A DNA stretch of 64,000 bases, taken from positions 90,650 to 154,649 of the IMG/VR virus record IMGVR_UViG_3300037418_002962. One strand, written 5' to 3'. Under the pieces are notes generated by a model. The model worked only from the letters and a program-made list of their open reading frames with translations. It was not told where the DNA came from and ran no database searches. A program made the position numbers and the translations under genes. This DNA is from a virus (taxonomy: Duplodnaviria; Heunggongvirae; Uroviricota; Caudoviricetes). Position 1 is the stretch's first letter. Every line of letters starts with the position of its first letter. Positions 8,854-51,989 of the stretch are shown here, piece after piece.

Positions 8854-9566
8854 TGAAATCATTCAAGCAAATCTTAAAAGAACGTGAAGAAGAACTTCTA
8901 GATCCTGATAGATGGGTAGGAACTGCAAAACACAATACAGTATCTTCACATTACATTGGGCATGATTCAGTAAATCCTAATCACTGGTATAATAAACAAC
9001 ACGGTCCTGGAAGTTCTTATGACATACCTAAAAGCATAACTCCAGAAGAGGCTGAATCTCTTAATGATTATGCATGGGGTTCATGGCATATTAATCATTT
9101 TCATAGGTCAGGTGGAGAAGTTCCTAAGCATTTTAGTGGAACTAAAGGTGAAATAGAACATCACACAAAGAACTTAGATTCTGTTTTAAATAAACACAGC
9201 CTTTCAAATAACTTTCATGTCTGGAGAGGATTTGCAGAACACAAAATAGTTCCTGCATTAAATCTCAAACCGGGAGATACTTTCCATGATAAAGGATTTG
9301 TTTCTACTTCAACCAATCCTAATGTTGCTAAAGGATTTACACCATTATCTCCAGGAATTGACCGACATTTATTTCATATTAAAGTTCCTAAGGGAAGTAA
9401 AGCATTGGCAATGGAGCATGTTTCATTTGGGGCTGGTGGAGAGAATGAAGTATTACTTCCAAGAAACTCAAAGTTCCGTTACGATAGCAGGGAAGAACAT
9501 CCCGCTCCTGAAGGGTCTAAACTAATTATCCATCATGTTACGCATATCCCAGAAAGTTCCGAATGA
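8853..9566 (+). CDS. capsid-targeted ADP-ribosyltransferase paralog 5
   Basis: MKSFKQILKE; YAWGSWHINHFHRSGG, FHVWRGF, DKGFVSTST, GENEVLLPRNSKFRYDS. Confidence 0.8.
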   Translation: MKSFKQILKEREEELLDPDRWVGTAKHNTVSSHYIGHDSVNPNHWYNKQHGPGSSYDIPKSITPEEAESLNDYAWGSWHINHFHRSGGEVPKHFSGTKGEIEHHTKNLDSVLNKHSLSNNFHVWRGFAEHKIVPALNLKPGDTFHDKGFVSTSTNPNVAKGFTPLSPGIDRHLFHIKVPKGSKALAMEHVSFGAGGENEVLLPRNSKFRYDSREEHPAPEGSKLIIHHVTHIPESSE

Positions 9567-10183
9567 AAACCTACAAAGAACTGCTAGAAAAATGGATTGG
9601 TGCTCGTAGAAGTGTACAGCAAGGATCTAGGCAGTACTTGAAGAATTATGGCAAGACAAACTTTGGCACCAGAATTCATGATTATGGAAATATTTTTGAT
9701 GATGAAATAAAATCTTTACATCATTACTCTAATGAAGGATATGATTCAATTAATAGACATTTAAGACATAATTCAAAGTTCCCTGCACATCCTGCAATTC
9801 AAGAACATATTAATAATATTGATTATGCAATCCATAAACATGAAACCAAACATGATATGCATGTATATAGAAGTCTTGGATGGCATGATCCAGAAATGAA
9901 ACCAGGAGATATTTACCATGACAGAGGTTTCGTTTCTACAACATTAAATAATCATTGGGGCACAGGAACAGGACATCTCATCCATATCAAGGTTCCTAAA
10001 GGTTCCAAGGCACTTTATCTAAACCAGAGAAGTCTTTCAAAACACTTTGGAGAACAGGAAGTATTATTGCCAAGAAATGCAAAATTCCGTTATGAAGGTT
10101 CAGAGAAAGTAAAAGACAAATATAATCAGGAAGGCACTCTTCATCATATGACATATCTAGGAACACACCATGAAGACACTTAA
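9563..10183 (+). CDS. capsid-targeted ADP-ribosyltransferase paralog 6
   Basis: MKTYKELLEKWIG (closest to T4 IPIII CTS MKTYQEFIAE); YDSINRHLRHNS, MHVYRSL, DRGFVSTTL, GEQEVLLPRNAKFRYEG. Confidence 0.8.
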   Translation: MKTYKELLEKWIGARRSVQQGSRQYLKNYGKTNFGTRIHDYGNIFDDEIKSLHHYSNEGYDSINRHLRHNSKFPAHPAIQEHINNIDYAIHKHETKHDMHVYRSLGWHDPEMKPGDIYHDRGFVSTTLNNHWGTGTGHLIHIKVPKGSKALYLNQRSLSKHFGEQEVLLPRNAKFRYEGSEKVKDKYNQEGTLHHMTYLGTHHEDT

Positions 10184-10808
10184 AGAATTACTTGAAGAAA
10201 CTAAAAGGTTTGAGATAGGAAGTGAAGATCCTATGCATGATTTTTCTAATGAGGATTATCATAACTTTAAAAAATTAAATAATCCTCATCAGCACAACAG
10301 CCTTTCTAATCATGAGACAAGATATCTAGGTGATTATGCTGGTTCTGGCTATTCTGCTGTTAATGATTATCATAGAGGAATGAGGGAAAGATATTTCGAG
10401 AAAAATCCATATACAGTAAATGGTATCAAGAACAAAACAAAACATTTAGATTCTGCCATAGGCAAGCATATTACTCTATATGATGCCCATGTCTGGAGAG
10501 GTATTACGCATAAATTAAAAGCAAAGAAGGGTGATATAATTCAGGATAAAGGTTATACGTCCACAAGCTTCAGGCCAAATGCTGCAATGGCATTTCTTGA
10601 TATGGAAAATAACCTTAGACATCATCTAATTCATATAAAAATTCCTGCATATTCCAGGGCAGTTTATATGCATCATAATAATTCTTCAGAAGAACAGGAA
10701 GTTCTTTTACCAAGAGGAAGTAAATTTAAATACCTTGGGAAAGAGAAACATCCAAGATATCCTAATATTACTATACATCATCTAGAGCATATTCCAGAGG
10801 AATCATGA
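10170..10808 (+). CDS. capsid-targeted ADP-ribosyltransferase paralog 7
   Basis: MKTLKELLEE; YSAVNDYHRGM, AHVWRGI, DKGYTSTSF, EEQEVLLPRGSKFKYLG; 14-nt overlap with upstream paralog. Confidence 0.8.
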   Translation: MKTLKELLEETKRFEIGSEDPMHDFSNEDYHNFKKLNNPHQHNSLSNHETRYLGDYAGSGYSAVNDYHRGMRERYFEKNPYTVNGIKNKTKHLDSAIGKHITLYDAHVWRGITHKLKAKKGDIIQDKGYTSTSFRPNAAMAFLDMENNLRHHLIHIKIPAYSRAVYMHHNNSSEEQEVLLPRGSKFKYLGKEKHPRYPNITIHHLEHIPEES

Positions 10809-11440
10809 TTACTTTTAAAGAATTACAAGAAAAATGGTTAGGATCTTCAAAACACAAAGCACAAGGTGCAGAACCTCTATCTAATGAAGAAATGCATAAA
10901 ATTGGTAATAAACTTCATGATCCACAGGAACTATCCGATATTGAAAAAAATCATTTAAGTTATTATACTGGTCCTGGACATTTATTAGTTAATGATCATC
11001 TAAGAGGAATTCGTACTTTTTCAGATCCTGATATTCATAAAGATATCAGCCAAATTAGTAATGCCATAGGAAAACATTCTACAAAACATGACGTTCATGT
11101 ATGGAGAAGTTATCATGATATTAAAGATTTAGGTCTTAAAAAAGGCGATATTTTCCATGATAAAGGATTTGTTTCTACTTCTTTAAGAAATAATCATAGT
11201 TCTCATATTCATACTCATATTATGCACATAAAAGTTCCCAAGGGAAGCAATGCAATGTATCTGAATCAGGAAAAAACTTCTAGTTATCCAGATGAACATG
11301 AAGTACTTTTACAAAAAGGAGCAAAATTCAAATATCATGGCGCAAAAACTCATGAAGTTCCTTTTCCAGCAGATATGAGAAATCCCACAAGAACAATGAC
11401 AATTCATCGTATGACCTATCTTGGTTCTGAAGATTCATAA
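10805..11440 (+). CDS. capsid-targeted ADP-ribosyltransferase paralog 8
   Basis: MITFKELQEKWLG; HLLVNDHLRGI, VHVWRSY, DKGFVSTSL, DEHEVLLQKGAKFKYHG. Confidence 0.8.
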   Translation: MITFKELQEKWLGSSKHKAQGAEPLSNEEMHKIGNKLHDPQELSDIEKNHLSYYTGPGHLLVNDHLRGIRTFSDPDIHKDISQISNAIGKHSTKHDVHVWRSYHDIKDLGLKKGDIFHDKGFVSTSLRNNHSSHIHTHIMHIKVPKGSNAMYLNQEKTSSYPDEHEVLLQKGAKFKYHGAKTHEVPFPADMRNPTRTMTIHRMTYLGSEDS

Positions 11441-11476
11441 TAAATATTATGAATAATTTTTCAAGCAGGTATTAAT

Positions 11477-14338
11477 TTGTCTAACGATTTTTCAAATAAA
11501 ATTTCGAGTCTTATCCCAGACCAGTTTCCTGAACTATATAAGCAGGAAGGGCAAAATTTTATAGCCTTCCTCAGGGCTTATTACGAATTTTTGGAGTTAC
11601 AAACTTCACCAGTTGGTGATCTTAGATCTCGTCTATCCTATATAGATATTGACGAAACTCTTGAGCAGTTCATCATTCATTTCAAAAACAAATACCTATA
11701 CAATATTCAGTTCTCTACTGCAAGTAATAAAAGATTATTCATCAAAAATTCTCTTGACTTTTATCGTTCTAAAGGTACCCCAAGGGCAATAGATCTGTTC
11801 TTCCGTTTAGTTTACGGATTGCCAGCAGAAGTATATTATCCCGGAGAAGATTTATTCAGGCTCTCTGATGGTAAATGGGTAAAGCCAAAATATCTGGAAA
11901 TTACCCCAACAGAAAATAATGTAGCATTCATTGGGCAGTTAGTGACAGGGCTTGAAACAGGAGCAACAGCATTTGCTGATAGATTAGTAAAAAGAAATAT
12001 CAATGGTAAATTTGTTGATATTCTTTTTGTAGAAAATATTATAGGAAATTTTACTATAGGAGAAAGATTAGTTTGCCCTGTATTAAATAAAGGAATGAAT
12101 CTTCCAAAGATTATTGGCTCTCTTTCTGGAGTTACTATAACATCAGGAGGAAGTAATTTTCAATTAGGCAATATTCTTGATATCGAATCTGCCTCTGGTA
12201 CTTCAGGAAAAGGAACTGTTGCATCTCTTGGATCACAGCAAGGTTTCGTGACATTTAATCTAATCGATGGTGGATTTGGCTATAAAGCAAATTCACAAGT
12301 TATAGTATCAAATACTGTTCTTGCTCTTAATAATACTGTCATATCAAGCACAACTAATTTTTCTCCTTTTAGTTTCTTTGAGACTGTTGTATCTCCAGTT
12401 GCAAATATCAATTACATTTCTTTGGCTGGTGGAAATTTAGTAGCTAATCAAACAATTAATGAATATACCACAGGAGTTCTTACAGGCACTGGAACTATCT
12501 TATCAGTTACTCCATCCAATACAACTGCCGGAAGTATTCTTGTTGCAATAGATAAACTCTCAAATAATTCTATCAGTAACTTACAAAGTAATACTAAGTT
12601 TTTTGTCACAGGCAATGTTATTTCTGCAAATATTGGTTCATATACAGATAGAACTGTTACAGGCAATGTAATGGGTATTTCTTCAAATTCAGACCTTTAT
12701 GTTGGTGAAATTACAGGAAGTTTTATTCTAGGAGAAACAGTATATCAATATAATGGAGCTAATATTTCAGGTTCTGGACAGATATCAACCATAATTCCAC
12801 AAGGAGTTGGGGCTATCTTATCCATAACAAATGTTAATGGAGTATTCGTTTCCAATAATCAGTTGTTTGCTAATACTACTGTATCTGGTGAACTGACTAC
12901 AGCATCTGCTAATTTAATTTCTGTATCTACAAGCATTGGATTAACAAATATTGGAACAGTTCCTTTCCAGAGTGGAGCTTTTCTGTTCGCCAATACATCA
13001 AATACCAGAGCAATTATTATGTCTTCTTCAGGAGGCAATGCAGCAACTTTTTCTGTTGGTGGAATCGATAATCAGGAATTGGTCTCAGAGAATACAGATC
13101 TATTGAGCGGTAATAACACAGGAGGAATTCCTTTCCTTAATGTGAAGGTAAATGGATCGAATGGAAATACAGGATTTGCAAATGGCCTTGGATTTCCTGC
13201 CATGCCATCTGGTACTATGAATACTCCTATCTGGGAATTATTAACATATCAGCAATATACTGTAGGCAGAATAAATTCCTTAACTAATATAAATCCAGGA
13301 CATAATTATACTGCAACTCCATTTGTTTGTGTCTATGATAATTATTCTGCTGCTTTAGAATTGTATGATTATACCGTGGAAATTTCTAACTCTACTTCTC
13401 AATTTATGGTTGGAGAAATAGTAACCCAAAACACAGTTATTTCTGGGCAGGAAACACAAATAAACTATTCTGCAATCACTGGAACTTTACAGAATGGGGA
13501 GCTTGTATATCAGAGCAATGGTACTGCAAATATTGCTACTGGACTTGTCGATATTTTCACATCTAATCCAAATACTGTTTATATTAATTATGTTCATGGG
13601 GTCTTCACCACAGGATTTCCTGTAGTAGGTGCAAGATCAAATGCAAGTATAACAGTTACTTCTGCAAACTCAACTATTAACAGAGTTAACAAAGCAGTTA
13701 TTAAAAGTATCACAAATGGTTCTATACTTGAATTAAAGAGACTTACTAAAGAAGAGATGGTTATTAATTCAAGTGCTTATCCGATAATTGGTAGCCAAAC
13801 AGGGGCAAGAGCCTATGTCATTGATGAAATAGAACCTTATGATCCACCACAAATAGGATTGAATGCTGTTGTTGATACAGACACAATCATTGCTAATGGA
13901 GTTATGACTGGTCTTTCTATTATTGGGACTGGATTTGGATTTTCTAATAATGAAATTGTAACAATAACTACAGAGGATAATTCCTCTATTGCAACTGGTA
14001 TAGTTTCTACTTCTTCTCTAGGATTTGGTCAGGGATATTATTCGTCTAATAAAGGGTTCTTAAGTGACTCGATATATCTTCTTGATTCTGATTTTTACCA
14101 GGAATATTCTTATCAGATTATTTCAAAATTACCATTAGATTATTATAAATCTCAGGCCAAGAAAGTACTCCATGTAGCTGGTACAAGAATGTTTGGTAAA
14201 GTAGATTTATCTTCAAATACTCAGAGTATAATTACAGAAATATCTGAAGGAAATTCTTCGATAACTGTTATTAATGGACAGTACAATCTATCAATTGGAG
14301 ATCTATCAGGATTTAATTTAGTTGCAGGAATTACATAA
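11477..14338 (+). CDS. gp7: baseplate wedge protein, gp7-like (TTG start)
   Basis: 953 aa; N-terminal NSLDFYRSKGTPRAIDLFFRLVYGLPAEV resembles remembered T4 gp7 C-terminal segment (SRSYDFYSTKGIEASYKFLFKVLYNEE); no in-frame ATG for about 195 codons, TTG at 11477 directly after an in-frame TAA. Confidence 0.55.
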   Translation: MSNDFSNKISSLIPDQFPELYKQEGQNFIAFLRAYYEFLELQTSPVGDLRSRLSYIDIDETLEQFIIHFKNKYLYNIQFSTASNKRLFIKNSLDFYRSKGTPRAIDLFFRLVYGLPAEVYYPGEDLFRLSDGKWVKPKYLEITPTENNVAFIGQLVTGLETGATAFADRLVKRNINGKFVDILFVENIIGNFTIGERLVCPVLNKGMNLPKIIGSLSGVTITSGGSNFQLGNILDIESASGTSGKGTVASLGSQQGFVTFNLIDGGFGYKANSQVIVSNTVLALNNTVISSTTNFSPFSFFETVVSPVANINYISLAGGNLVANQTINEYTTGVLTGTGTILSVTPSNTTAGSILVAIDKLSNNSISNLQSNTKFFVTGNVISANIGSYTDRTVTGNVMGISSNSDLYVGEITGSFILGETVYQYNGANISGSGQISTIIPQGVGAILSITNVNGVFVSNNQLFANTTVSGELTTASANLISVSTSIGLTNIGTVPFQSGAFLFANTSNTRAIIMSSSGGNAATFSVGGIDNQELVSENTDLLSGNNTGGIPFLNVKVNGSNGNTGFANGLGFPAMPSGTMNTPIWELLTYQQYTVGRINSLTNINPGHNYTATPFVCVYDNYSAALELYDYTVEISNSTSQFMVGEIVTQNTVISGQETQINYSAITGTLQNGELVYQSNGTANIATGLVDIFTSNPNTVYINYVHGVFTTGFPVVGARSNASITVTSANSTINRVNKAVIKSITNGSILELKRLTKEEMVINSSAYPIIGSQTGARAYVIDEIEPYDPPQIGLNAVVDTDTIIANGVMTGLSIIGTGFGFSNNEIVTITTEDNSSIATGIVSTSSLGFGQGYYSSNKGFLSDSIYLLDSDFYQEYSYQIISKLPLDYYKSQAKKVLHVAGTRMFGKVDLSSNTQSIITEISEGNSSITVINGQYNLSIGDLSGFNLVAGIT

Positions 14339-16439: not shown

Positions 16440-16976
16440 ATGCTTTCATATTATAATACTTTAGAGGAAATATGTTATTTATATTGGGTTCATTTACCTG
16501 AACATAAAGATATGTTTAATCAAGGATACATTGGTATTTCAAAAAATATAAAAGCTAGATACTCATCTCATAAAGGAAATAAATCTCATAAGTATTTAAC
16601 AGAAGCATTTAAAAATTACAAAGACAAAATCACTGTTACAACTATATTAAAAGGAACAAGAGAATATTGTTTAGAAATTGAGAATAAATTAAGACCAGAA
16701 AAAAATATTGGATGGAATGATCAAATAGGCGGGGGAGATCCGCCATCACATAAAGGTAAAGCTAAATCAGAATCATGGAAAAAATTGATGAGTGATACTA
16801 AAAAAGGAATTCCTCACCCATGGACTATAGAATCTAATAAAAATAGAATTCCATCTGCAAAAGGTAAAAAATGGTATCATGATCCTGTAACTAAATACAG
16901 TAGTTATTTTAACCCAGGAGAACAGCCTGAAAATTGGGTATTAGGAAGATTTTCTAGAAAGAGAGTTATATTATAA
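16440..16976 (+). mobile_element. GIY-YIG homing endonuclease (Seg-like) between baseplate and fibre genes
   Basis: YLYWVHLPEH...GYIGISKNIKARYSSH (GIY...YIG...R..H); basic NUMOD-like C-terminus. Confidence 0.6.
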
Positions 16977-26179: not shown

Positions 26180-26833
26180 ATGAGCTACAGACAAAATTTA
26201 GTCATAGAGCAAGGCTCTTCTTTTAATACTACTATAGTTCTCCATAATTCAAATGGAGATAATATAACTTTCTCTAATACTTCAACAGCTATTGGAACTT
26301 TAAGGAAAACTTATTCTTCTGCAAATTCTGTTGGGTTTGCAGTGACATTATCCAATACTGGCGTTAATTTGTCAATGGATGCTAATACAACTGCATTTAT
26401 TTATCCTAATAACATTTATCTTTATGATGTTCTAGTTACCGATTCTGCAACCGGGCTAAAAACAAGAATTATAGAAGGACAGGTAAGAGTTACAGCAGCA
26501 ATTACCGATCAAGTCTTTATTACAACCTATCCCTATCCTATTCCTCCACTGTTTTCTAATGAAAATTCTAATTTCAATGTAATCCAAGGAACAAAAACTT
26601 ATTATTGTGATAGTAGTAATGGGATAATAATTGCAACCCTACCAACTGGCCCAACTATTGGTGATATCTATTTCTTCAAGGATGTTACGGGTGCTGCAGG
26701 AAATAATCCTATTGAACTCAATGGTAATGGATTAAATATTGATGGTTCTCCAACAAGTAATGGATTTATTCAGGTTGCGTATGGTTGGGGAAGAGTCGAA
26801 TTTAATGGAACACAATGGAGTAGAATAGGATAA
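26180..26833 (+). CDS. hypothetical late protein (217 aa)
   Basis: ORF behind a late promoter; beta-rich. Confidence 0.45.
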   Translation: MSYRQNLVIEQGSSFNTTIVLHNSNGDNITFSNTSTAIGTLRKTYSSANSVGFAVTLSNTGVNLSMDANTTAFIYPNNIYLYDVLVTDSATGLKTRIIEGQVRVTAAITDQVFITTYPYPIPPLFSNENSNFNVIQGTKTYYCDSSNGIIIATLPTGPTIGDIYFFKDVTGAAGNNPIELNGNGLNIDGSPTSNGFIQVAYGWGRVEFNGTQWSRIG

Positions 26834-27054
26834 TGAAAAGTTTTATTAATATACTTTTTCTCTTTGTCTTGTTAGTTTCTGGAATTTCTTTTGCACAGGT
26901 CCCAAATCCTGCAAACATTGATTCGCCAATTACTTCAGGAACTATTTCAATATCTGCAGATACTTCTTTTGCCTGTTTTAATATAACTTGGACTGCTCCT
27001 AATACTGATAATTGGTATGTTGTAGCTAGAATTAAAACTATAGAAGCTTATTAA
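26833..27054 (+). CDS. small secreted protein with cleavable signal peptide
   Basis: MKSFINILFLFVLLVSGISFA-QV: hydrophobic h-region plus AxA-like cleavage site; no LxE tag. Confidence 0.45.
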   Translation: MKSFINILFLFVLLVSGISFAQVPNPANIDSPITSGTISISADTSFACFNITWTAPNTDNWYVVARIKTIEAY

Positions 27055-34653: not shown

Positions 34654-34661
34654 TATAAATA
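34654..34661 (+). promoter_or_regulatory. T4-type late promoter TATAAATA upstream of the neck gene
   Basis: Exact TATAAATA 30 nt upstream of ATG 34691. Confidence 0.55.
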
Positions 34662-36162: not shown

Positions 36163-36846
36163 ATGAAATCATTTAAACAGTTATTTGAAAATCATGAAGA
36201 ATGGCTAGGAACTGCAAATCCTAAAGATCTAGAAACAGGCGAAGGAATATTTGCCTCTGATGGACCACCACATCATATAGTTTCTGCTTCACAGAATTTA
36301 CATCAAAGACATAATTTTACTCATGATGAATTTACTAGTGTTAATGCATATATTGGAGCAAATAACCTACCAGAAAATAATATGTTTAAAGGATATAGAG
36401 CAATTAATGGACATTTAAGAGGAACTTTACATTCAGATGCAACTCTTCCTTCATTTCATCTAAAAAATCTAGATAAAAATCTTTTAGATAAACATATCAG
36501 TAATTTAGATTCTGCTATTGCTAAACATACAACAGAACATCCAATTCATTTATGGAGAGGATTTCATAGAGATGCTAGAGTTCAGGATTTAACACCTGGA
36601 GATATTTTTCATGATAAGGGATTTGTCTCTACGACAACAGATCCTAGTTATGCAAAACAAATGAGGCATGTAGTAGCTCATATTAAAGTCCCGAAAGGAT
36701 CTAAAGCGTTAGCTGTTAACAAGTATCATTTTGATAATGATTGGGAACATGAAGTATTACTTCCAAGAAACTCCAAGTTTCGCTACGAAGGTTATACAGA
36801 TCATGGAACAACAAGGATTCATCATCTAGAACATATTCCAGAGTAA
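36163..36846 (+). CDS. capsid-targeted ADP-ribosyltransferase paralog 9
   Basis: MKSFKQLFENHEEWLGTANP; YRAINGHLRGT, IHLWRGF, DKGFVSTTT, WEHEVLLPRNSKFRYEG. Confidence 0.8.
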   Translation: MKSFKQLFENHEEWLGTANPKDLETGEGIFASDGPPHHIVSASQNLHQRHNFTHDEFTSVNAYIGANNLPENNMFKGYRAINGHLRGTLHSDATLPSFHLKNLDKNLLDKHISNLDSAIAKHTTEHPIHLWRGFHRDARVQDLTPGDIFHDKGFVSTTTDPSYAKQMRHVVAHIKVPKGSKALAVNKYHFDNDWEHEVLLPRNSKFRYEGYTDHGTTRIHHLEHIPE

Positions 36847-37870: not shown

Positions 37871-38497
37871 ATGAAGACATTTAAAGAATTACTTAAAGAA
37901 AGCAATGAACATTGGGTTGGAACTACAAATCCTGATATTAATACTGTCAATATTCCTCAAAGTAACAATCATAATTATAGAGAAAATTTCCTATTAGATA
38001 AAAATGACCATTATAATCTTAATGACCATGAGAGAGATGCGGTAGAAGATTATGTGTCATCTGCTGCTTTAATAAATTCTCATCATAGGCATAATGATGT
38101 TCCTGAAAAATGGCATAATTTATTAAATGAGAGAACAAAGCATCTGGATTCTGCTCTAAATAAAAATAGAACAAGACATAATGTCCATCTCTGGAGAGGT
38201 ATTATAAGAGATGATAGTAAAAAAATATTACAGGATCTTAATCCAGGAGATACTTTCCACGATAAAGGCTATGTTTCTACAAGTTTTTCTCCAGATGCAG
38301 CAGGTGGTTTTGGTTCTCATCTTTTTCATATAAAAGTTCCTAAAGGGAGCAGAGCGTTAGTTCCATCTTATCATGGTTTGGGTAAAGCACATGAGCAGGA
38401 AGTAATATTACCGAGAAATTCTAAATTTAGATATTTAAATTCTGAAAAAATTAATGGAACTAACATACATCATTTAGAACATATACCAGAGGATTAA
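37871..38497 (+). CDS. capsid-targeted ADP-ribosyltransferase paralog 10
   Basis: MKTFKELLKESNEHWVGTTNP; ALINSHHRHND, VHLWRGI, DKGYVSTSF, HEQEVILPRNSKFRYLN. Confidence 0.8.
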   Translation: MKTFKELLKESNEHWVGTTNPDINTVNIPQSNNHNYRENFLLDKNDHYNLNDHERDAVEDYVSSAALINSHHRHNDVPEKWHNLLNERTKHLDSALNKNRTRHNVHLWRGIIRDDSKKILQDLNPGDTFHDKGYVSTSFSPDAAGGFGSHLFHIKVPKGSRALVPSYHGLGKAHEQEVILPRNSKFRYLNSEKINGTNIHHLEHIPED

Positions 38498-40663: not shown

Positions 40664-41293
40664 ATGAACAATCCATATACTTATATCTATTTTGATCCTT
40701 CTAGAGATTTTGAACCCTTTTATGTTGGTAAAGGGAACGGTAGAAGATACAAAAGACATCTAACTAGAAAAGATATGCATCCAATGACTCACAGAATTCA
40801 GAAAATGCTGAAAGAGAATATTGAGCCTATAATTAAAATTATAGAATGTTCTACAGATGAAAATGCTCTGAATTTAGAATCTGCTTTAATTAGAATATTT
40901 GGCAGAAAAGATTTAAATAAGGGTCCATTGCTAAATCTAACTGATGGTGGTGAAAATCCTCCAAGGTTGTTTGGAGAAGACAATGGATTTTATGGTAAAA
41001 ATCATAGTGATGAAACAAAGGATAAGCTTAGAAAAGCTAGATTAGGAAAAAAGCTCTCTAAAGAAGTCGTGGAAAAAATGGCGTTGGGCCATAGAGGAAT
41101 TCCATGTTCAGAAGCAGCAATAGCAAGTACAGCCAAGAGATTTCTTATTATTTTCCCAGATGGGCATGAAGAAGAAATTATAAACATGAGGAAATTCTGC
41201 CGAGAAAACGATTTAAGTTATAGAAATATGAAAAGAGTTTTGAGAGGCGAAAGGAAACAACATAAAGGATTTAAAGCAATAAAACTAAGTTAA
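40664..41293 (+). mobile_element. GIY-YIG homing endonuclease (Seg-like) between terminase and sheath genes
   Basis: YTYIYFDPSRDFEPFYVGKGNGRRYKRH (GIY-YIG + R..H); NUMOD3-like GKNHSDETKDKLRKARLGKK; C-terminal IIFPDGHEEEIINMRKFCRENDL...KGFKAIK DNA-binding module. Confidence 0.8.
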
Positions 41294-45959: not shown

Positions 45960-46163
45960 ATGGCAGAATCACAGGTATTTACATCAGCAGATATTGTTAA
46001 AGCAGCAGCAGAAAATGATGCACTAAATGCAAAATCAGCTTTTGGTAACATTATGTTAGATAAAATTAGAGATGCAATTGCTGGAAAAAGAGAAGAAATG
46101 GCTAGTACATTGCTGACAACTCCAGAAAATAATACAGAAGTAGAGGTTACAGATAATGCCTAA
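45960..46163 (+). CDS. small prohead core protein, gp67-like (67 aa; MAESQVF start with AAGGAG RBS)
   Basis: Position between portal and protease as in T4; the track start at 45939 lacks an RBS. Confidence 0.4.
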   Translation: MAESQVFTSADIVKAAAENDALNAKSAFGNIMLDKIRDAIAGKREEMASTLLTTPENNTEVEVTDNA

Positions 46164-47592
46164 TCCAATTTTATCAAAAATTCTAGAACTATATGTTCCT
46201 AAGACTCAAGGAGAAAAAGAGTTTTGGAACCTTCATGTTATTAAGAAAGTAAATAATGATCCAAAGACAAATATGGACAGTACTTTCCAGGCCACAAATA
46301 TTGCTGTTGATACCTCTAGACCAGCAGATAAAAAAGTAAAGTCTGACTATGATACTTTATCTGGAAATGAAGATGATAAAGTTGCAGAAGATTTTTCGGG
46401 AGTTCTTGGACTTTCGGAAGCAGCATGGGTAGTTTCCAAGCCTCTTGATACTATTTCTGGAGTTAAAGAAGGTCCAATTGTTGTAGTAAATATGAAACAT
46501 GGACAGAAGAAAATTGGGCTAGTTCGTAGACCAAATCAGCTAGGTCCAAATAAAGATAACAAGAAGGCTGGCGATTATAGCAAGACTTTCGTAATTAAAC
46601 ATAAACCAACAGGAAGAAGTTTTACTTTATATACTGCTGCTGGTACTCCAAGAATTCGTGCATATGGGCATGATGACAAGGATCTTACACAGAAACTAAA
46701 AGATTACTTAGAAGAAAATCTTAGCTATGAGTATGACATTACTCATGGAGTTTTTCTAGGCGAAGAATTCACTCCAAATAAAGTCTATCATATCGGTAAA
46801 GATGATGATAGAGGATATTTTATTCCTAAGTCAAAACAAAAAAATGGCAAGTGGGCTGGACTGCAATTTGATGGTGGTGCAGCAGGAAGATCTGCAAAGA
46901 AACCAACAAAGTATGCTTATGATCCTCATCCTAGTTGGAAAGAAACACCAGACCATGAAATTCCAAAACATATAAAGCCATATATTAATGAAGAATTTGA
47001 GAATGATGGTGATCATGATGCAGATGACGATGAAGTATCATTTGATGTTCCAACCTTTATTAAGGCTCTAGAATGGGCCAGAGAAGATGCAAATAAAGAT
47101 AGCAATCTTCATATTTTTGCTGAAAATGCAGTAAAGCTAAACAGATGTGCCAAAATGGAAGATTGGGATAAGCTTGTTGAAGGAACTAAAGGTGCTGATG
47201 AACCTGTAGACGAAGAATTTTATGAACTTCCAGTATTTGAACAGATTGAACTAAATGCTGATTCTGGACAGGACTTTGACATTACTTTCAAGAATGGAGA
47301 TATTCTAACAATTTCTCCAGATAAAGCCAAGTCAATTCTTGAAAACAAAGAAATTAATCAGGAATTACTTTCAGAATCAATCGAAACATTTAACGAAGAA
47401 GCTGGCCTAAGGCTTATTGATACTCATGAAGAAGGCAATAAGAAAGCCAAGGTCTACAAAAATTATCATTGGGGAGAATATCAGGTTAAGTTCCATACCG
47501 ATGGAAAACATCACAAGGATGCTGATTATCATACAGATGATGAGGATGATGCCCATGGTACTGCAAAAAATTGGTTAAGGAATAGTAAATAA
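46156..47592 (+). CDS. large acidic prohead core / internal protein (478 aa)
   Basis: Position in the head-morphogenesis cassette; very acidic C-terminal half (DGDHDADDDE...); N-terminal KILELYVPK with LxE-type sites. Confidence 0.4.
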   Translation: MPNPILSKILELYVPKTQGEKEFWNLHVIKKVNNDPKTNMDSTFQATNIAVDTSRPADKKVKSDYDTLSGNEDDKVAEDFSGVLGLSEAAWVVSKPLDTISGVKEGPIVVVNMKHGQKKIGLVRRPNQLGPNKDNKKAGDYSKTFVIKHKPTGRSFTLYTAAGTPRIRAYGHDDKDLTQKLKDYLEENLSYEYDITHGVFLGEEFTPNKVYHIGKDDDRGYFIPKSKQKNGKWAGLQFDGGAAGRSAKKPTKYAYDPHPSWKETPDHEIPKHIKPYINEEFENDGDHDADDDEVSFDVPTFIKALEWAREDANKDSNLHIFAENAVKLNRCAKMEDWDKLVEGTKGADEPVDEEFYELPVFEQIELNADSGQDFDITFKNGDILTISPDKAKSILENKEINQELLSESIETFNEEAGLRLIDTHEEGNKKAKVYKNYHWGEYQVKFHTDGKHHKDADYHTDDEDDAHGTAKNWLRNSK

Positions 47593-47970: not shown

Positions 47971-48285
47971 ATGTCAGGTTTAATGGATATCTACACTAAG
48001 CAAATTTCCAGAGATGCTAATAAGATAGAGGAAAGCATGTATCCAAATTTGGAAAAGGATGAAGGAGAATTTAGAAATATTTTACAAAAGCATGGCTATG
48101 TAAAAGGATTACATGGGTTTGAAATGATCCATCCTAAAGAAGGACATTTAGTAACAATTTTCGATAATAAAGATGGTAAAATTTTTGTTAGTCATAAATT
48201 CAATAAAGAACCACATTATACAGTGAAATTTCATGATCCTGCTAGCCTAAATAATTACCTGCATCATCATATTAGTAAGGAATAA
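47971..48285 (+). CDS. small head-cassette protein, paralog A (104 aa; MSGLMDIYTKQISRD)
   Basis: Real ATG inside track ORF 47824-48285; paralogous to 48941-49420. Confidence 0.45.
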   Translation: MSGLMDIYTKQISRDANKIEESMYPNLEKDEGEFRNILQKHGYVKGLHGFEMIHPKEGHLVTIFDNKDGKIFVSHKFNKEPHYTVKFHDPASLNNYLHHHISKE

Positions 48286-48288
48286 GAA

Positions 48289-48939
48289 ATGAAGCTACTC
48301 AGAGATTACTTAACAGAAGATATTGAATACTTAACAGAAGATAAAGAGGGCGTAAAAAATCTTTATATTACTGGTCCATTCATGATGGCTGAAAAGATTA
48401 ACAGGAATGGCAGAGCTTATCCATTATCTATTCTTGAAAGAGAAGTAGCAAGATATATCAAGGAAAAAGTCAATGAAAATATGGCATGGGGGGAGCTAAA
48501 TCATCCACAAGGCCCACAAATTAATTTCGATAGAGTTTCCCATAGAATTGTTGAATTAAAACAAGATGGAAATTGCTTCTATGGCAAGGCACTTATTACT
48601 AATACTCCATGCGGAAATATTGTCAAGGGATTAATTGAATCTGGTGGGAAAGTTGGTGTTTCTTCAAGAGGAATGGGTTCTCTAAAACCAATGAGAGAAG
48701 GCCATAATGAAGTACAGGACGATTATTTTCTAGCAACTGCTGCAGATGTTGTTGCAGATCCTTCAATGCACACTGCATTTGTTAATGGCATCATGGAAGA
48801 AAAAGAATGGATATTCGAATCTGGTGTGTGGAAAGAAGCAGAGCTAGTTGCTGCTAAACAGGAAATTCATAGAGTTTCTAAAAGTCAGCTAGAAGAAGCC
48901 AAATTGTCACTATTCAAGAAATTCCTAGGGAGTCTGTAA
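48289..48939 (+). CDS. gp21: prohead core protein and protease gp21
   Basis: LYITGPFMMAEKINRNGRAYP...WGELNHPQGPQINFDRVSHRIVEL...VGVSSRGMGSL matches remembered T4 gp21 (IYISGKFMEAEIKNRNGRIYP...TGELEHPESPSINTERISHVITKL...LGVSSRALGSV). Confidence 0.9.
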   Translation: MKLLRDYLTEDIEYLTEDKEGVKNLYITGPFMMAEKINRNGRAYPLSILEREVARYIKEKVNENMAWGELNHPQGPQINFDRVSHRIVELKQDGNCFYGKALITNTPCGNIVKGLIESGGKVGVSSRGMGSLKPMREGHNEVQDDYFLATAADVVADPSMHTAFVNGIMEEKEWIFESGVWKEAELVAAKQEIHRVSKSQLEEAKLSLFKKFLGSL

Positions 48940-48940
48940 A

Positions 48941-49420
48941 ATGTCAAATATGGAAATGTATATGCAAAGAATTTCTAGGGATGTCAAGGCAAAAACTTGT
49001 GGATATTTAGAGGAAGCAATTGTAACCCCAAACAGTTCTGGTCAGGGATATGATGAGGATCATGTGGAAAATCCATATCATCATTTGCTTACTCAACATG
49101 GATTTATTTACAGCCATTCCACCCCAGTAACACATCTAATGACTGTTTATGACAAGGATTGGGATAAGAAAACAGGAAAGAAATTTATTTATCACACATA
49201 TAAGAAAGGCGAAAGAAATATTTCCGTTCATATCGACCCAGATTCTACTTGGCAATACAAATCACCAAAAAATAAATTCAAATGGTCTGGTTCAAAGTCT
49301 TCTGCATCAGGAAGGCATAAAGAAGGCAATGATGTAGAATCTCTACAAAAGTATTTAAAGAATATTAGAAACGTCAAAGAAGACTATGAAGAAGGTCTAG
49401 AATCCTTCTTAAATAGTTAA
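48941..49420 (+). CDS. small head-cassette protein, paralog B (159 aa; MSNMEMYMQRISRD)
   Basis: Shares its N-terminal motif and central L..HG[YF]....H block with 47971-48285. Confidence 0.45.
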   Translation: MSNMEMYMQRISRDVKAKTCGYLEEAIVTPNSSGQGYDEDHVENPYHHLLTQHGFIYSHSTPVTHLMTVYDKDWDKKTGKKFIYHTYKKGERNISVHIDPDSTWQYKSPKNKFKWSGSKSSASGRHKEGNDVESLQKYLKNIRNVKEDYEEGLESFLNS

Positions 49421-49473: not shown

Positions 49474-50559
49474 ATGATAAAGAAAACTGAAACAGTAAAA
49501 GAAGATATGACTCCAGCACAGGCAAGTCTAACTCCAGCTTCACATCCAACTGGTCAGGATCTTGATCCAACTCGTAATGCCATGATGGCCTATGCCATTC
49601 AGGTAATGGGTGGACTAGAAAAAGGCGATCTTTCCCGTTTCCTAGAATCTCTTGCCCAGATTGGACAGGAAACAGCAGTTCTTCCACCAACAGCAGATGC
49701 AAATGCAAATCTATCAACAATTGCTGCAAAGCCATCTGATGCAGTTAAGGAAGATGTTGCTCTTCTTTTTGCTGGTGAAGATCTTACTGAAGACTTCAAG
49801 AATAAAGCAGCTTCCCTAGTAGAAGATGCAGTAGCTGTAAGAGTTGCACTTGAGAAAGTAAAGCTTGATGAAGAATACACAAAGAATCTTGAGGAAGCTT
49901 ATAAGAAAGTAACCGAGATTGAAGAAGAATTCGAAACCAAGTTAGTAGAAGCCTGTGAAAATTATGAAAAGGAACTTTCTGAAAAGGTAGACGAATATCT
50001 AAATTATGTTGCTACTGAGTGGATGAAAGAAAATGAAATTGCTATTGAAGCTGGTATTAAAACAGAAATGACAGAAAGCTTCATGGAAGGTCTAAAGAAT
50101 CTTCTTACTGAGCATTATATCGATATTCCAGAAGATAAAGTAGATGTTTTATCTAATCTTTCAAGCAAAGTTGAAGAGCTAGAAGCAAAGCTAAATGAAT
50201 CTGTAAATGAAGTTATCGAGCTAAAGAAAGAAGCTCTTAACGTCCAGAAGGGTTCAATCGTAGCAGAACTTGCAGAAGGTCTACTTGCAACTGAACAGGA
50301 AAAATTCAAGACACTTTCTGAGAGCATTGATTTCAATGGTGATACAGAGTCATTCAAGAAAAGACTTGCAGTTGTAAAAGAGAATTACTTTAAGAAAACT
50401 GTAACATCTGTAATTAATGATACCGTTATTACTGAAGATGTTGCTTATACAGAAGACGGTAAATTAGTAGAAACAATTGCTGAAGAGATTAAACCAACTG
50501 TACTAGAGCCAGTAATGAATAAGTACGTTAGCGCAATTTCTAGAGGTAAGAAACTCTAA
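49474..50559 (+). CDS. gp22: prohead core scaffold protein gp22
   Basis: 361 aa, Glu/Lys/Ala-rich predicted coiled coil, between gp21 and gp23. Confidence 0.7.
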   Translation: MIKKTETVKEDMTPAQASLTPASHPTGQDLDPTRNAMMAYAIQVMGGLEKGDLSRFLESLAQIGQETAVLPPTADANANLSTIAAKPSDAVKEDVALLFAGEDLTEDFKNKAASLVEDAVAVRVALEKVKLDEEYTKNLEEAYKKVTEIEEEFETKLVEACENYEKELSEKVDEYLNYVATEWMKENEIAIEAGIKTEMTESFMEGLKNLLTEHYIDIPEDKVDVLSNLSSKVEELEAKLNESVNEVIELKKEALNVQKGSIVAELAEGLLATEQEKFKTLSESIDFNGDTESFKKRLAVVKENYFKKTVTSVINDTVITEDVAYTEDGKLVETIAEEIKPTVLEPVMNKYVSAISRGKKL

Positions 50560-50621: not shown

Positions 50622-51989
50622 ATGGCCGAATATATTACCGAGGAACTAGTTAGAAAGTGGAAGCCTGTTCTTGAGCATCAAGACCTTGCCCCAATTAAAG
50701 ATCCTCACAAGCGCGCAGTAACTGCAACTGCTCTTGAAATGACCGAACAGGCCATTGCAAAGGATGCTTCTTATAACCCAATGACCCTATCAGAAACTGC
50801 CCCAACTAACTCAGTTGCTTCTGGTGGTGTTGCTAACTTCGATCCAGTATTGATTAGCCTTGTTAGACGTTCTCTACCAAATCTAATTGCCTATGACATC
50901 TGCGGTGTTCAGCCAATGACAGGTCCAACTGGTCTAATCTTCGCAATGCGTTCACGTTACAATGATATGGCTAACACAGAAGCCCTATATACTGAAGCCA
51001 ACACTGCATGGTCAACTGTAGTTGATGGTTCCAATACTCAGGGTTCCAAGATGGTTGGTAATATTCCTGGTAATACCTCACAGGTTTCAAACCTTGCTGC
51101 TACTGGCCTATATAACTATGCTGGTGCAATGACTACAGCACAGGGTGAAGCTCTAGGTAGCTCTGGTAACGTTGCAATTCCACAGATGGCTTTCTCAATC
51201 GAAAAGGTTTCTGTAACTGCTGAAACTCGTGCTCTAAAGGCTGAATACTCAATCGAACTAGCACAGGATCTAAAAGCCATTCATGGTCTAGATGCTGAAA
51301 CAGAACTAAGCAATATTCTTTCTGCTGAAATTCTTGCTGAAATCAACCGTGAAGTTGTTCGTACCATTAACGTTGTTGCAACTCAGGGTGCAACAGAAGG
51401 TACAGTAACCTCAGGTATCTTCGATCTAGACACTGATTCAAATGGCCGTTGGTCAGTTGAGAAGTTCAAGGGTCTAATGTTCCAGGTAGAGCGTGAAGCT
51501 AACCAGATTGCCAAAGCTACTCGTAGAGGCAAAGGTAACATGATGATCTGTTCAAGTGATGTTGCTTCTGCACTTCAGATGGCTGGTGTTCTTGATTATA
51601 CTCCTGCTCTAGATGCAAATCAGCTAATGGTTGATGATACTGGCAATACTTTTGCTGGTGTTCTAAACGGTAGAATTCGTGTCTATATCGACCCATACGC
51701 TGGTGGTCAGAATCCTGCAGTTGGTCAGTATATGACTGTTGGTTTCAAGGGTGCTAATGCCTTCGATGCCGGTCTATTCTACTGCCCATATGTGCCACTC
51801 CAGATGGTTCGTGCAGTTGATCCAGGCAGCTTCCAGCCAAAGATTGGGTTTAAGACTCGTTATGGCATGGTAGCCAATCCATACGCACAGGGTAGTGCAA
51901 TCTTCGCACCAAATACATTCCCTGCAAATGGTCTAGTTGCTGATACAAATGTGTATTATCGGAGAGTACTCGTCACAAATCTCTTTTAA
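50622..51989 (+). CDS. gp23: major capsid protein gp23
   Basis: LVRKWKPVLEH and VRRSLPNLIAYDICGVQPMTGPTGLIFAMR match remembered T4 gp23 (LLNKWKPLLEG, VRRAIPNLIAFDICGVQPMNSPTGQVFALR); GC-enriched codon usage. Confidence 0.9.
   Translation: MAEYITEELVRKWKPVLEHQDLAPIKDPHKRAVTATALEMTEQAIAKDASYNPMTLSETAPTNSVASGGVANFDPVLISLVRRSLPNLIAYDICGVQPMTGPTGLIFAMRSRYNDMANTEALYTEANTAWSTVVDGSNTQGSKMVGNIPGNTSQVSNLAATGLYNYAGAMTTAQGEALGSSGNVAIPQMAFSIEKVSVTAETRALKAEYSIELAQDLKAIHGLDAETELSNILSAEILAEINREVVRTINVVATQGATEGTVTSGIFDLDTDSNGRWSVEKFKGLMFQVEREANQIAKATRRGKGNMMICSSDVASALQMAGVLDYTPALDANQLMVDDTGNTFAGVLNGRIRVYIDPYAGGQNPAVGQYMTVGFKGANAFDAGLFYCPYVPLQMVRAVDPGSFQPKIGFKTRYGMVANPYAQGSAIFAPNTFPANGLVADTNVYYRRVLVTNLF

Follow-up and report, generated by a model that had tools for sequence, protein, structure and literature searches.

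A leader resembling the T4 internal-protein capsid-targeting sequence on a large set of ADP-ribosyltransferases in an uncultured T4-like phage

The window analysed here is a 64,000-nucleotide stretch of viral DNA (positions 90,650 to 154,649 of IMG/VR record IMGVR_UViG_3300037418_002962), which is part of a 243,684-bp contig of the Joint Genome Institute (JGI) and has a G+C content of 34.6%. Its structural gene operons carry a series of genes for ADP-ribosyltransferases (ARTs) and one gene for a protein with LRV/HEAT repeats, whose products begin with a common leader of ten residues, called the tag below. Judged from its sequence, the source is an uncultured T4-like myovirus, a distant relative of T4. 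The head genes show ~68–72% nucleotide identity to those of Methylophilales phage Melnitz, pelagiphage HTVC008M and cyanomyoviruses, the protein identity to T4 is 41% for gp21 and 36% for gp23, and the genes follow the T4-type order (gp25, gp6, gp7, gp8 ... gp13–gp20, gp21, gp22, gp23).

The tagged genes adjoin or overlap gp25, gp6, gp14 and gp15. The ten N-termini listed in a first-pass annotation of this DNA are all encoded in the window, at the positions it gave and with exactly the sequences it listed. The genes that carry them, and an ART gene cut by the window start, are as follows.

2–367, plus strand: 3' part of an ART gene cut by the window start; hidden Markov model (HMM) match with E 1e-38
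803–1516, plus strand: tagged ART; tag MKSFREILEE at 803–832; begins 1 nt after a gp25-like gene
1513–2256, plus strand: tagged ART; tag MKSFKNYLKE at 1513–1542; overlaps the preceding stop codon
2256–2927, plus strand: tagged ART; tag MQSFKILLEK at 2256–2285
4799–6313, plus strand: tagged non-ART cargo with LRV/HEAT repeats; tag MKSFSQLLEA at 4799–4828
8853–9566, plus strand: tagged ART; tag MKSFKQILKE at 8853–8882; start overlaps the gp6 stop codon
9563–10183, plus strand: tagged ART of 206 residues; its first 13 codons, 9563–9601, encode MKTYKELLEKWIG
10170–10808, plus strand: tagged ART; tag MKTLKELLEE at 10170–10199
10805–11440, plus strand: tagged ART; tag MITFKELQEK at 10805–10834; gp7 is the next gene
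36163–36846, plus strand: tagged ART; tag MKSFKQLFEN at 36163–36192; between gp14 and gp15
37871–38497, plus strand: tagged ART; tag MKTFKELLKE at 37871–37900; between gp15 and gp16

The nine complete ARTs are 202–279 residues long, match PF03496 with Pfam E-values of 1e-16 to 1e-27 and are the only complete ART open reading frames (ORFs) found in the window, all of the R-S-ExE type. No other Pfam domain scores above the cut-off in these proteins (the 1513 protein has a single sub-threshold FA match), so they are not MuF fusions. A six-frame search of the window with an HMM of the nine ARTs returned no untagged ART. Since it adds only the gene at the window start, no ART of the window lacks a tag: nine of nine complete ARTs carry it, and the truncated one begins with MKSFKQLTEI at position 13486 of an overlapping contig, L083, which bears out the earlier statement that every ART paralog is tagged. 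One further ORF with a tag-like start (26833–27054, 73 residues, start MKSFINILFLFVLLVSGISFAQ) was rejected as cargo, its sequence being hydrophobic and signal-peptide-like.

The overlapping Logan contig L083 matches window positions 1–280 at 100% identity (L083 13755–14034) and reaches 13.75 kb further upstream. Its positions 1–14034 contain 16 more ART genes, which surround a gp5-like gene (L083 9060–10004). The N-terminus is readable in 15 of these 16 ARTs, the sixteenth being cut at the start of the locus; it is tag-like in 14 of the 15 (e.g. MKRLKEFIAE and MKTLKQLLEE), and the atypical one reads MKFQEINELIK. Together with the nine ARTs of the window, the phage thus has at least 25. The earlier count of eleven proteins holds for the window, where ten tags and the window-start ART make eleven, and is far too small for the arsenal as a whole. 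This arsenal is unusually large: a 2022 survey of 21,191 viral proteomes named as ART-rich examples Bacillus phage G, with at least 10 ARTs, and Bodo saltans virus, with 12 (PMC9503650).

The R, S-T-S and E-x-E motifs of the ARTs are invariant in a 17-sequence alignment (A1), and under strict search criteria STS is recognised in all 24 complete paralogs, ExE in 23 of them and the arginine motif in 22. In the AlphaFold2 model of the ART at 9563 (mean predicted local distance difference test, pLDDT, of 80), residues 1–11 form a short helix of low confidence (pLDDT below 50), residues 16–31 are disordered and a VIP2/C3-like core follows with confidence; the tag is not packed on this core. The top Foldseek matches of the model are VIP2, Plx2A, Certhrax and C3bot. 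The core is homologous to the catalytic domain of T4 Alt (hhalign 97.6%, E 5e-12, Alt residues 408–515). The proteins are not Alt orthologs: they are only 202–279 residues long, nothing outside Alt residues 408–515 aligns, and their N-terminus is of the internal-protein (IP) type, not MELITE.

The ART encoded at L083 12770 has no ExE in the strict search and may be inactive. The C-termini of several ARTs (window positions 1490–1516, 9540–9566, 10780–10808, 36820–36846 and 38470–38497) share the motif HH[LV]T[HY][IL][PG]E.., which gives an I-P-E site 0–3 residues from the end in about one third of the ARTs and recalls the C-terminal processing of Alt. In the genes at 1513 and 10805, the closing codons of the preceding gene, CCAGAGGAA, double as a GAGGA ribosome-binding site.

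ARTs of the same single-domain architecture are represented by ~39 cluster representatives, nearly all tagged, in a library of 1.84 billion proteins. The top relatives found with the ART profile (P0133–P0171) are giant untagged polypeptides of 2,000–4,350 residues with 6–12 tandem ART domains; they are the fused counterpart of the tandem ART gene arrays described here. Untagged ART relatives thus exist, both as multi-ART polyproteins and as MuF-type ARTs. A search of IMG/VR with the ART profile and a tblastn search of isolated phages gave only distant ART domains (at most 39% identity), with the N-terminus uncovered. Of two scans of metagenome contigs, the first gave no relative; the second gave three ARTs, all untagged, of which two are on contigs of ~880 kb.

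The tag stands out sharply from other protein starts. In leave-one-out scoring the tags reach log-odds of 14–27 bits, compared with at most 5.1 bits for the 363 other Met-starts in the window and at most 4.9 bits for 10,726 background Met-starts taken from 1.1 Mb of unrelated phage loci. It is exactly ten residues long and starts at Met1 in all cases. Across 56 distinct family N-termini, the information content is 1.2–3.5 bits at positions 2–10, with the highest values at F4 (3.5 bits), K5 (2.8), K2 (2.3) and the hydrophobic position 7 (2.2), and then drops to 0.4 bits at residue 11. Of these 56, which were pre-selected for a hydrophobic residue at positions 4 and 7, 55 have F, Y or L at position 4 and all have L, F, Y, I or M at position 7. 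The putative cleavage motif [LI]-x-E has its glutamate at residue 9 or 10 in 47 of the 56 family tags (about half at 9, the rest at 10) and in all ten window tags, as the first-pass annotation had noted.

Among the 24 complete paralogs, the mean pairwise identity over residues 1–10 is 0.50. The three ten-residue blocks that follow have 0.25, 0.07 and 0.16, and the catalytic blocks (R, STS and ExE) 0.43–0.73. The tag is therefore about as conserved as the catalytic motifs, and the linker behind it is hypervariable and disordered. Because the DNA upstream of the ten tagged genes is unrelated and the tag codons vary synonymously, selection acts on the peptide and not on a DNA or mRNA element, and recent gene conversion does not account for the similarity. 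Behind the tag, at about residues 12–17, most ARTs have a second motif, (E/K)-x-W-[LIV]-G-[TS] (window positions 839–860, 9599–9610 and equivalents), of which G13 is invariant in alignment A1. This second motif is absent from the LRV cargo.

The closest known counterpart of the tag is the N-terminus of the T4 internal proteins. In the T4 genome (NC_000866), IPI begins with MKTFKEF and reads MKTFKEFTSTTTPVSTITE/A (the slash marks the cut site), and IPII and IPIII read MKTYQEFIAE/A. A position-specific scoring matrix with low pseudocounts gave the T4 internal proteins just 0–3 bits, because it penalised residues unseen in ten sequences, and was replaced by a BLOSUM-averaged profile built only from the ten window tags. 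With this profile, IPI scores 16.9 and IPII and IPIII score 16.4, which ranks them 1–3 among 440 Met-starts in 60 kb of T4 and above all 10,726 background Met-starts (maximum 13.5). The proposed likeness to the T4 internal-protein tag is thus borne out. It had also been proposed that this sequence directs both the internal proteins and Alt into the T4 head. The N-termini of IPI, IPII and IPIII match; that of Alt, MELITE/LFDE, contains no tag (gp24 begins MAKINELLRE/S), and Alt loses 6 residues at ITE-6 and 63 residues at LTE-619 (PMC5694885).

Mutagenesis of the T4 capsid-targeting sequence (CTS) linked residues 4 and 7 to targeting and residues 8 and 10 to processing, and its ten residues alone suffice to load GFP and other foreign proteins (review PMC9026906). 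The informative positions of the tags and their [LI]-x-E motif match the mutational data, so the two leaders appear to obey the same grammar. No tag was found in the first 50 kb of cyanophage Syn9.

The tag is not confined to ARTs. The protein encoded at 4799–6313 is unrelated to them and carries the same tag. It is 504 residues long and consists of an alpha/beta domain (residues ~30–260) and LRV/HEAT repeats (residues 270–504); its AlphaFold2 model has a pLDDT of 91, with residues 1–7 disordered, and a GAGGA lies 7 nt before its ATG. In another phage, represented by locus L084, the ortholog begins with (TTG)KTFKEILEA and the gene order, ART-ART-gp25-LRV-ART-ART-ART, matches that of the window. 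More than 260 proteins belong to this family; among the 120 listed, 72 have a tag-like start, M-x-x-F-K-x-F-[IL]-K-E; the homolog of the Ralstonia jumbo phage RsoM2USA starts with MKTFKQFLNT. The alpha/beta domain has no Pfam, PHROG or PDB assignment that we could find. It is highly conserved, with W142, S144, C145 and R191 invariant and H129-P-x-D-V-A-G-M-S nearly so, and it recurs in three jumbo phages (Atu_ph07, RsoM2USA and Lu11) and in phages of Erwinia and Dickeya.

Other cargo carries the tag in environmental phages. A scan of IMG/VR for DNA encoding MKTFKE[FL] gave at least 120 loci. Among the matches listed, the motif is at the start of an ORF in 96 of 123, the tagged ORFs fall into ~62 cargo families, many of which resemble the T4 internal proteins in being small and very basic, and glutamate is far commoner than in the background both at position 9 (22 of 62 families) and at position 10 (25 of 62); T4-like core genes are present on 35 of 120 short loci. 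Since unrelated cargoes have the same tag, the leader seems to be a widespread N-terminal address in T4-like phages and not a quirk of one family. On at least ten contigs, a tagged ORF is located between gp20 and gp21. In T4 this slot is occupied by the genes of the prohead-core proteins gp67 and gp68. A tblastn search of isolated phages with a 71-residue tagged ORF from the gp20–gp21 slot gave no match. One recurrent tagged family, MKTFKEF..ESSLSRIKSKSDKGG.., of ~160–240 residues, adjoins gp16/gp17 (L099, L100, L106 and others; H77 and H82–H86) and is also found in the isolated cyanophages P-TIM68, S-N03, S-H34 and S-CREM2. The S-CREM2 member is annotated as an S-adenosylmethionine hydrolase and, if this annotation is correct, would be a packaged anti-restriction enzyme.

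The enzyme presumed to remove the tag is encoded in the head gene module of the window, together with the scaffold and the major capsid protein.

48289–48939, plus strand: gp21-type prohead serine protease (Peptidase_S77), presumed tag remover
49474–50559, plus strand: gp22 scaffold, presumed protease substrate and tag-binding core; 15 [LI]xE sites
50622–51989, plus strand: gp23 major capsid protein; candidate maturation site L-S-E58 (L-T-E65 in T4)

The gp21 homolog, which the first-pass annotation had already placed at 48289, matches Peptidase_S77 with 121.8 bits (cut-off 27), is 41% identical to T4 gp21 and keeps the GELNHP and GVSSRG motifs of the catalytic region. Its own N-terminus, MKLLRDYLTE (MKLLRDYLTEDIEYLTE, 48289–48340), is tag-like, with a profile score of 9.8 that is reached by 19 of the 10,726 background Met-starts. 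The gp21 homologs of 11 T4-like contigs in IMG/VR start with MKLITE.. or a close variant and resemble the MELITE of T4 Alt, which is cut at ITE-6.

Sites for such a protease are unevenly distributed among the phage proteins when [LI]xE is counted against composition-preserving shuffles. The mature regions of 24 cargo proteins have 31 sites where 47 are expected (ratio 0.66, P 0.006), and the LRV protein has none where 3.2 are expected (ratio 0, P 0.037). The gp22 scaffold has 15 where 7.9 are expected (ratio 1.9, P 0.004) and the gp21 protease 9 where 3.4 are expected (ratio 2.6, P 0.004). Tail, head-shell, core-region and minus-strand genes range from 1.18 to 1.33, the untagged multi-ART polyproteins are at 1.14 and the tagged LRV family is at 0.64. 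Of the sites still present in the cargo, many are located in the linker or among the three C-terminal residues. This pattern, suggestive only, is as predicted for proteins exposed to an [LI]xE protease.

The clues to the timing of expression are operon position and promoter-like motifs, two of which are located at the heads of operons with tagged genes.

4766–4773, plus strand: T4-late-promoter-like CATAAATA, 33 nt upstream of the LRV gene
34654–34661, plus strand: late-promoter-like TATAAATA, 37 nt upstream of gp13

The second site heads the block gp13-gp14-ART-gp15-ART-gp16-gp17. On the plus strand, 10 of 18 ATAAATA sites are located 15–55 nt upstream of start codons, a zone that makes up 3.5% of the sequence (P ~1e-10), and these start-proximal sites precede gp7, gp8, gp13, gp18, gp19, gp22, gp23 and the LRV gene. 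The overall count of TATAAATA does not exceed that of shuffles (12 vs 10.5); the positional test alone is informative. Sigma-70-like sites show no enrichment. Equivalent late-type motifs precede three ART arrays in L083, upstream of the window. The operon position and the NATAAATA motifs suggest that the tagged genes are made late. Late synthesis of enzymes that act on the host would be pointless unless they were packaged, an argument that has long been accepted for T4 Alt.

Taken together, these data make it likely that the leader, M-[KI]-[ST]-[FY]-K-[EQ]-[LIFY]-[LI]-x-E, is a CTS of the T4 internal-protein type that is cleaved by gp21 and that its cargo is packaged and injected. The predicted pathway would begin with late transcription of the tagged genes within the operons of baseplate, neck and head genes. 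During prohead assembly, the short amphipathic N-terminal helix, with its hydrophobic residues 4, 7 and 8, would dock the protein on the gp22 core. The gp21-type protease would then cut after the E of [LI]-x-E, at residue 9 or 10, and free the cargo inside the head, where the mature proteins would stay with the DNA until they are ejected into the next host. The cargo would comprise at least 25 small Alt/VIP2-family ARTs of the arginine type (R-S-ExE) and one LRV/HEAT protein with an alpha/beta domain, so that what enters the host along with the DNA is probably a large set of preformed enzymes. All steps from core binding through packaging, cleavage, retention and injection to enzyme activity are extrapolated from the features described above.

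Several points weigh against this interpretation. The phage is known from sequence alone, and the specificity attributed to its protease derives from T4 and from one candidate site in the capsid protein. The register of the cut site varies, the glutamate being residue 9 in half of the window tags and residue 10 in the others, and a few family members have no [LI]xE in their first 12 residues. The E-x-W-L-G-T motif that follows the tag is not accounted for by a targeting tag. The depletion of [LI]xE in the cargo is modest, and in an independent set, the tagged ART cluster representatives from the database, it is not significant (ratio 0.85, P 0.10). Lastly, loading of more than 25 cargo species through a single tag implies that each head contains few copies of each.

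Other roles can be imagined for the leader. It could be mainly an inhibitory or safety propeptide that keeps toxic ARTs inactive in the producing cell and whose removal by the prohead protease activates them, with targeting residing elsewhere, e.g. in W-L-G-T. The conserved second motif behind the tag would fit such a division of labour, but the leader also heads non-enzymatic and unrelated proteins, namely the LRV protein and numerous small basic ORFs. In the AlphaFold2 model a disordered linker keeps it apart from the ART core, on which it does not pack, and the ten residues of its T4 equivalent load foreign proteins unaided (PMC9026906). We consider this function improbable. About as improbable, or slightly more so, is an assembly role, in which the tagged proteins enter the prohead core as extra scaffold or core components and are then degraded or expelled instead of being injected. 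The gp67/68 slot taken by small tagged ORFs in other T4-like contigs points in this direction, as does the cutting of T4 gp67 and gp68 into fragments (PMC5694885). Catalytic motifs as well kept as those of the ARTs (STS in 24 of 24, ExE in 23 and the arginine in 22) would, however, be pointless in a disposable scaffold, the cargo is poor in internal [LI]xE sites where gp22 and gp21 are rich in them, and the homologous T4 Alt is retained and injected.

Interleaving of the tagged genes with the baseplate genes gp5, gp25, gp6 and gp7 raises the question of whether their products are tail or baseplate cargo, or else early cytoplasmic enzymes like T4 ModA and ModB, with a leader that serves translation or some other localisation. 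This is very unlikely: the T4 tag sends proteins to the head, the tag elsewhere marks ORFs in the gp20–gp21 head module, no early-type promoters stand out and late-type motifs head the operons, and the tag is kept as a peptide despite varying codons, which argues against an mRNA-level signal. Finally, the ARTs are paralogs in tandem arrays, in which some shared sequence is expected, and the common N-terminus might have been merely inherited within a duplicated clade and have no targeting role. We give this hardly any credence, as the tag is far more similar (identity 0.50) than its flank (0.07–0.16), untagged ART relatives exist in the form of multi-ART polyproteins and MuF-type ARTs, and the tag is shared by non-homologous proteins and by the T4 internal proteins; the LRV protein and the IMG/VR families already contradict mere inheritance.

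Head loading through a T4-type CTS, the reading we favour, has its closest parallel in IPI, IPII and IPIII of T4 (Mullaney & Black 1996; PMC9026906, PMC3012670, PMC12373910). Both systems have a leader of ~10 residues of the MKT[FY][KQ]EF.. type, with hydrophobic residues at positions 4 and 7 and an [LI]-x-E motif, attached to unrelated cargo proteins in a phage that encodes a gp21 protease. They differ in the cargo, which in T4 consists of three small non-enzymatic inhibitors of the GmrSD restriction enzyme encoded outside the structural operons, and here of at least 25 enzymes of 200–280 residues and a 504-residue repeat protein encoded inside the baseplate, neck and head operons. T4 Alt has a homologous catalytic domain of the R-S-E type and is likewise made for delivery with the DNA. 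Unlike the proteins described here, it is the 682-residue product of a single gene, has an extensive N-terminal region, undergoes processing at ITE-6 and LTE-619 and is present in ~40 copies per head. The ARTs of this phage can thus be described as 'mini-Alts' with an IP-type tag, multiplied at least 25-fold.

ARTs fused to MuF and polyvalent virion proteins (PMC9503650, PMC5512222) similarly bring ART domains into heads for injection. These are loaded as covalent fusions with a structural domain of the head or as a single giant polypeptide, whereas each ART here is a separate small single-domain protein with a predicted cleavable address tag. The ejection proteins of phiKZ and SPN3US (PMC5694885) are also internal to the head, form paralog families and are trimmed after a glutamate by a protease of the gp21 family, but their propeptides are mostly longer than 100 residues, are cut at A/S/G-x-E and have no common leader of ten residues.

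The T-even CTS/gp21 mechanism is therefore known, as is the delivery of ARTs by the head via Alt, MuF fusions and polyvalent proteins (PMC9503650). New are the joining of an IP-type tag to Alt-type catalytic domains in separate small proteins, the expansion to at least 25 ARTs within the structural operons of a distant T4 relative, and the evidence from environmental T4-like phages that this tag is attached to many cargo families. If the tag is reliable, the injected proteins of uncultured T4-like phages become predictable from sequence, and dozens of cargo families are already flagged. That T4 Alt has no IP-type tag and its relatives here do bears on how Alt reaches the head. The phage also offers a natural experiment on how a head-loading system of limited capacity deals with many cargoes, since all these ARTs appear to use a single route, and on the way ART specificity diversifies during an arms race. 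A bolder idea, which we put forward only tentatively, is that the ARTs, being at least 25 in number, head-loaded, Alt-like and diversified in the loops beside their catalytic motifs, ADP-ribosylate many host and defence proteins before phage expression starts, as a pre-emptive broad counter-defence, and that the leader is a universal portable cargo address across the T4 superfamily, from T-even to marine, freshwater and jumbo phages.

Some other genes of the window deserve mention. Two homing-endonuclease-like genes with PHROG matches are inserted among the structural genes, at 6310–7020 (minus strand) and 16440–16976 (plus strand), and a third candidate, recognised by inspection, is located at 40664–41293 (plus strand). 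The seg and mob genes of T4 are arranged in much the same way. Between the portal and protease genes, positions 46156–47592 encode a protein of 478 residues with the N-terminus MPNPILSKILE, for which Pfam gives no match. The gp21 gene is flanked by two small paralogs, at 47971–48285 and 48941–49420, which share the N-terminal motif Y-x-[KQ]-[QR]-I-S-R-D and contain KIEE ending at residue 22 in one and YLEE ending at residue 25 in the other. The 478-residue protein and the two paralogs may be prohead-core or internal proteins without a tag, comparable to gp67 and gp68.

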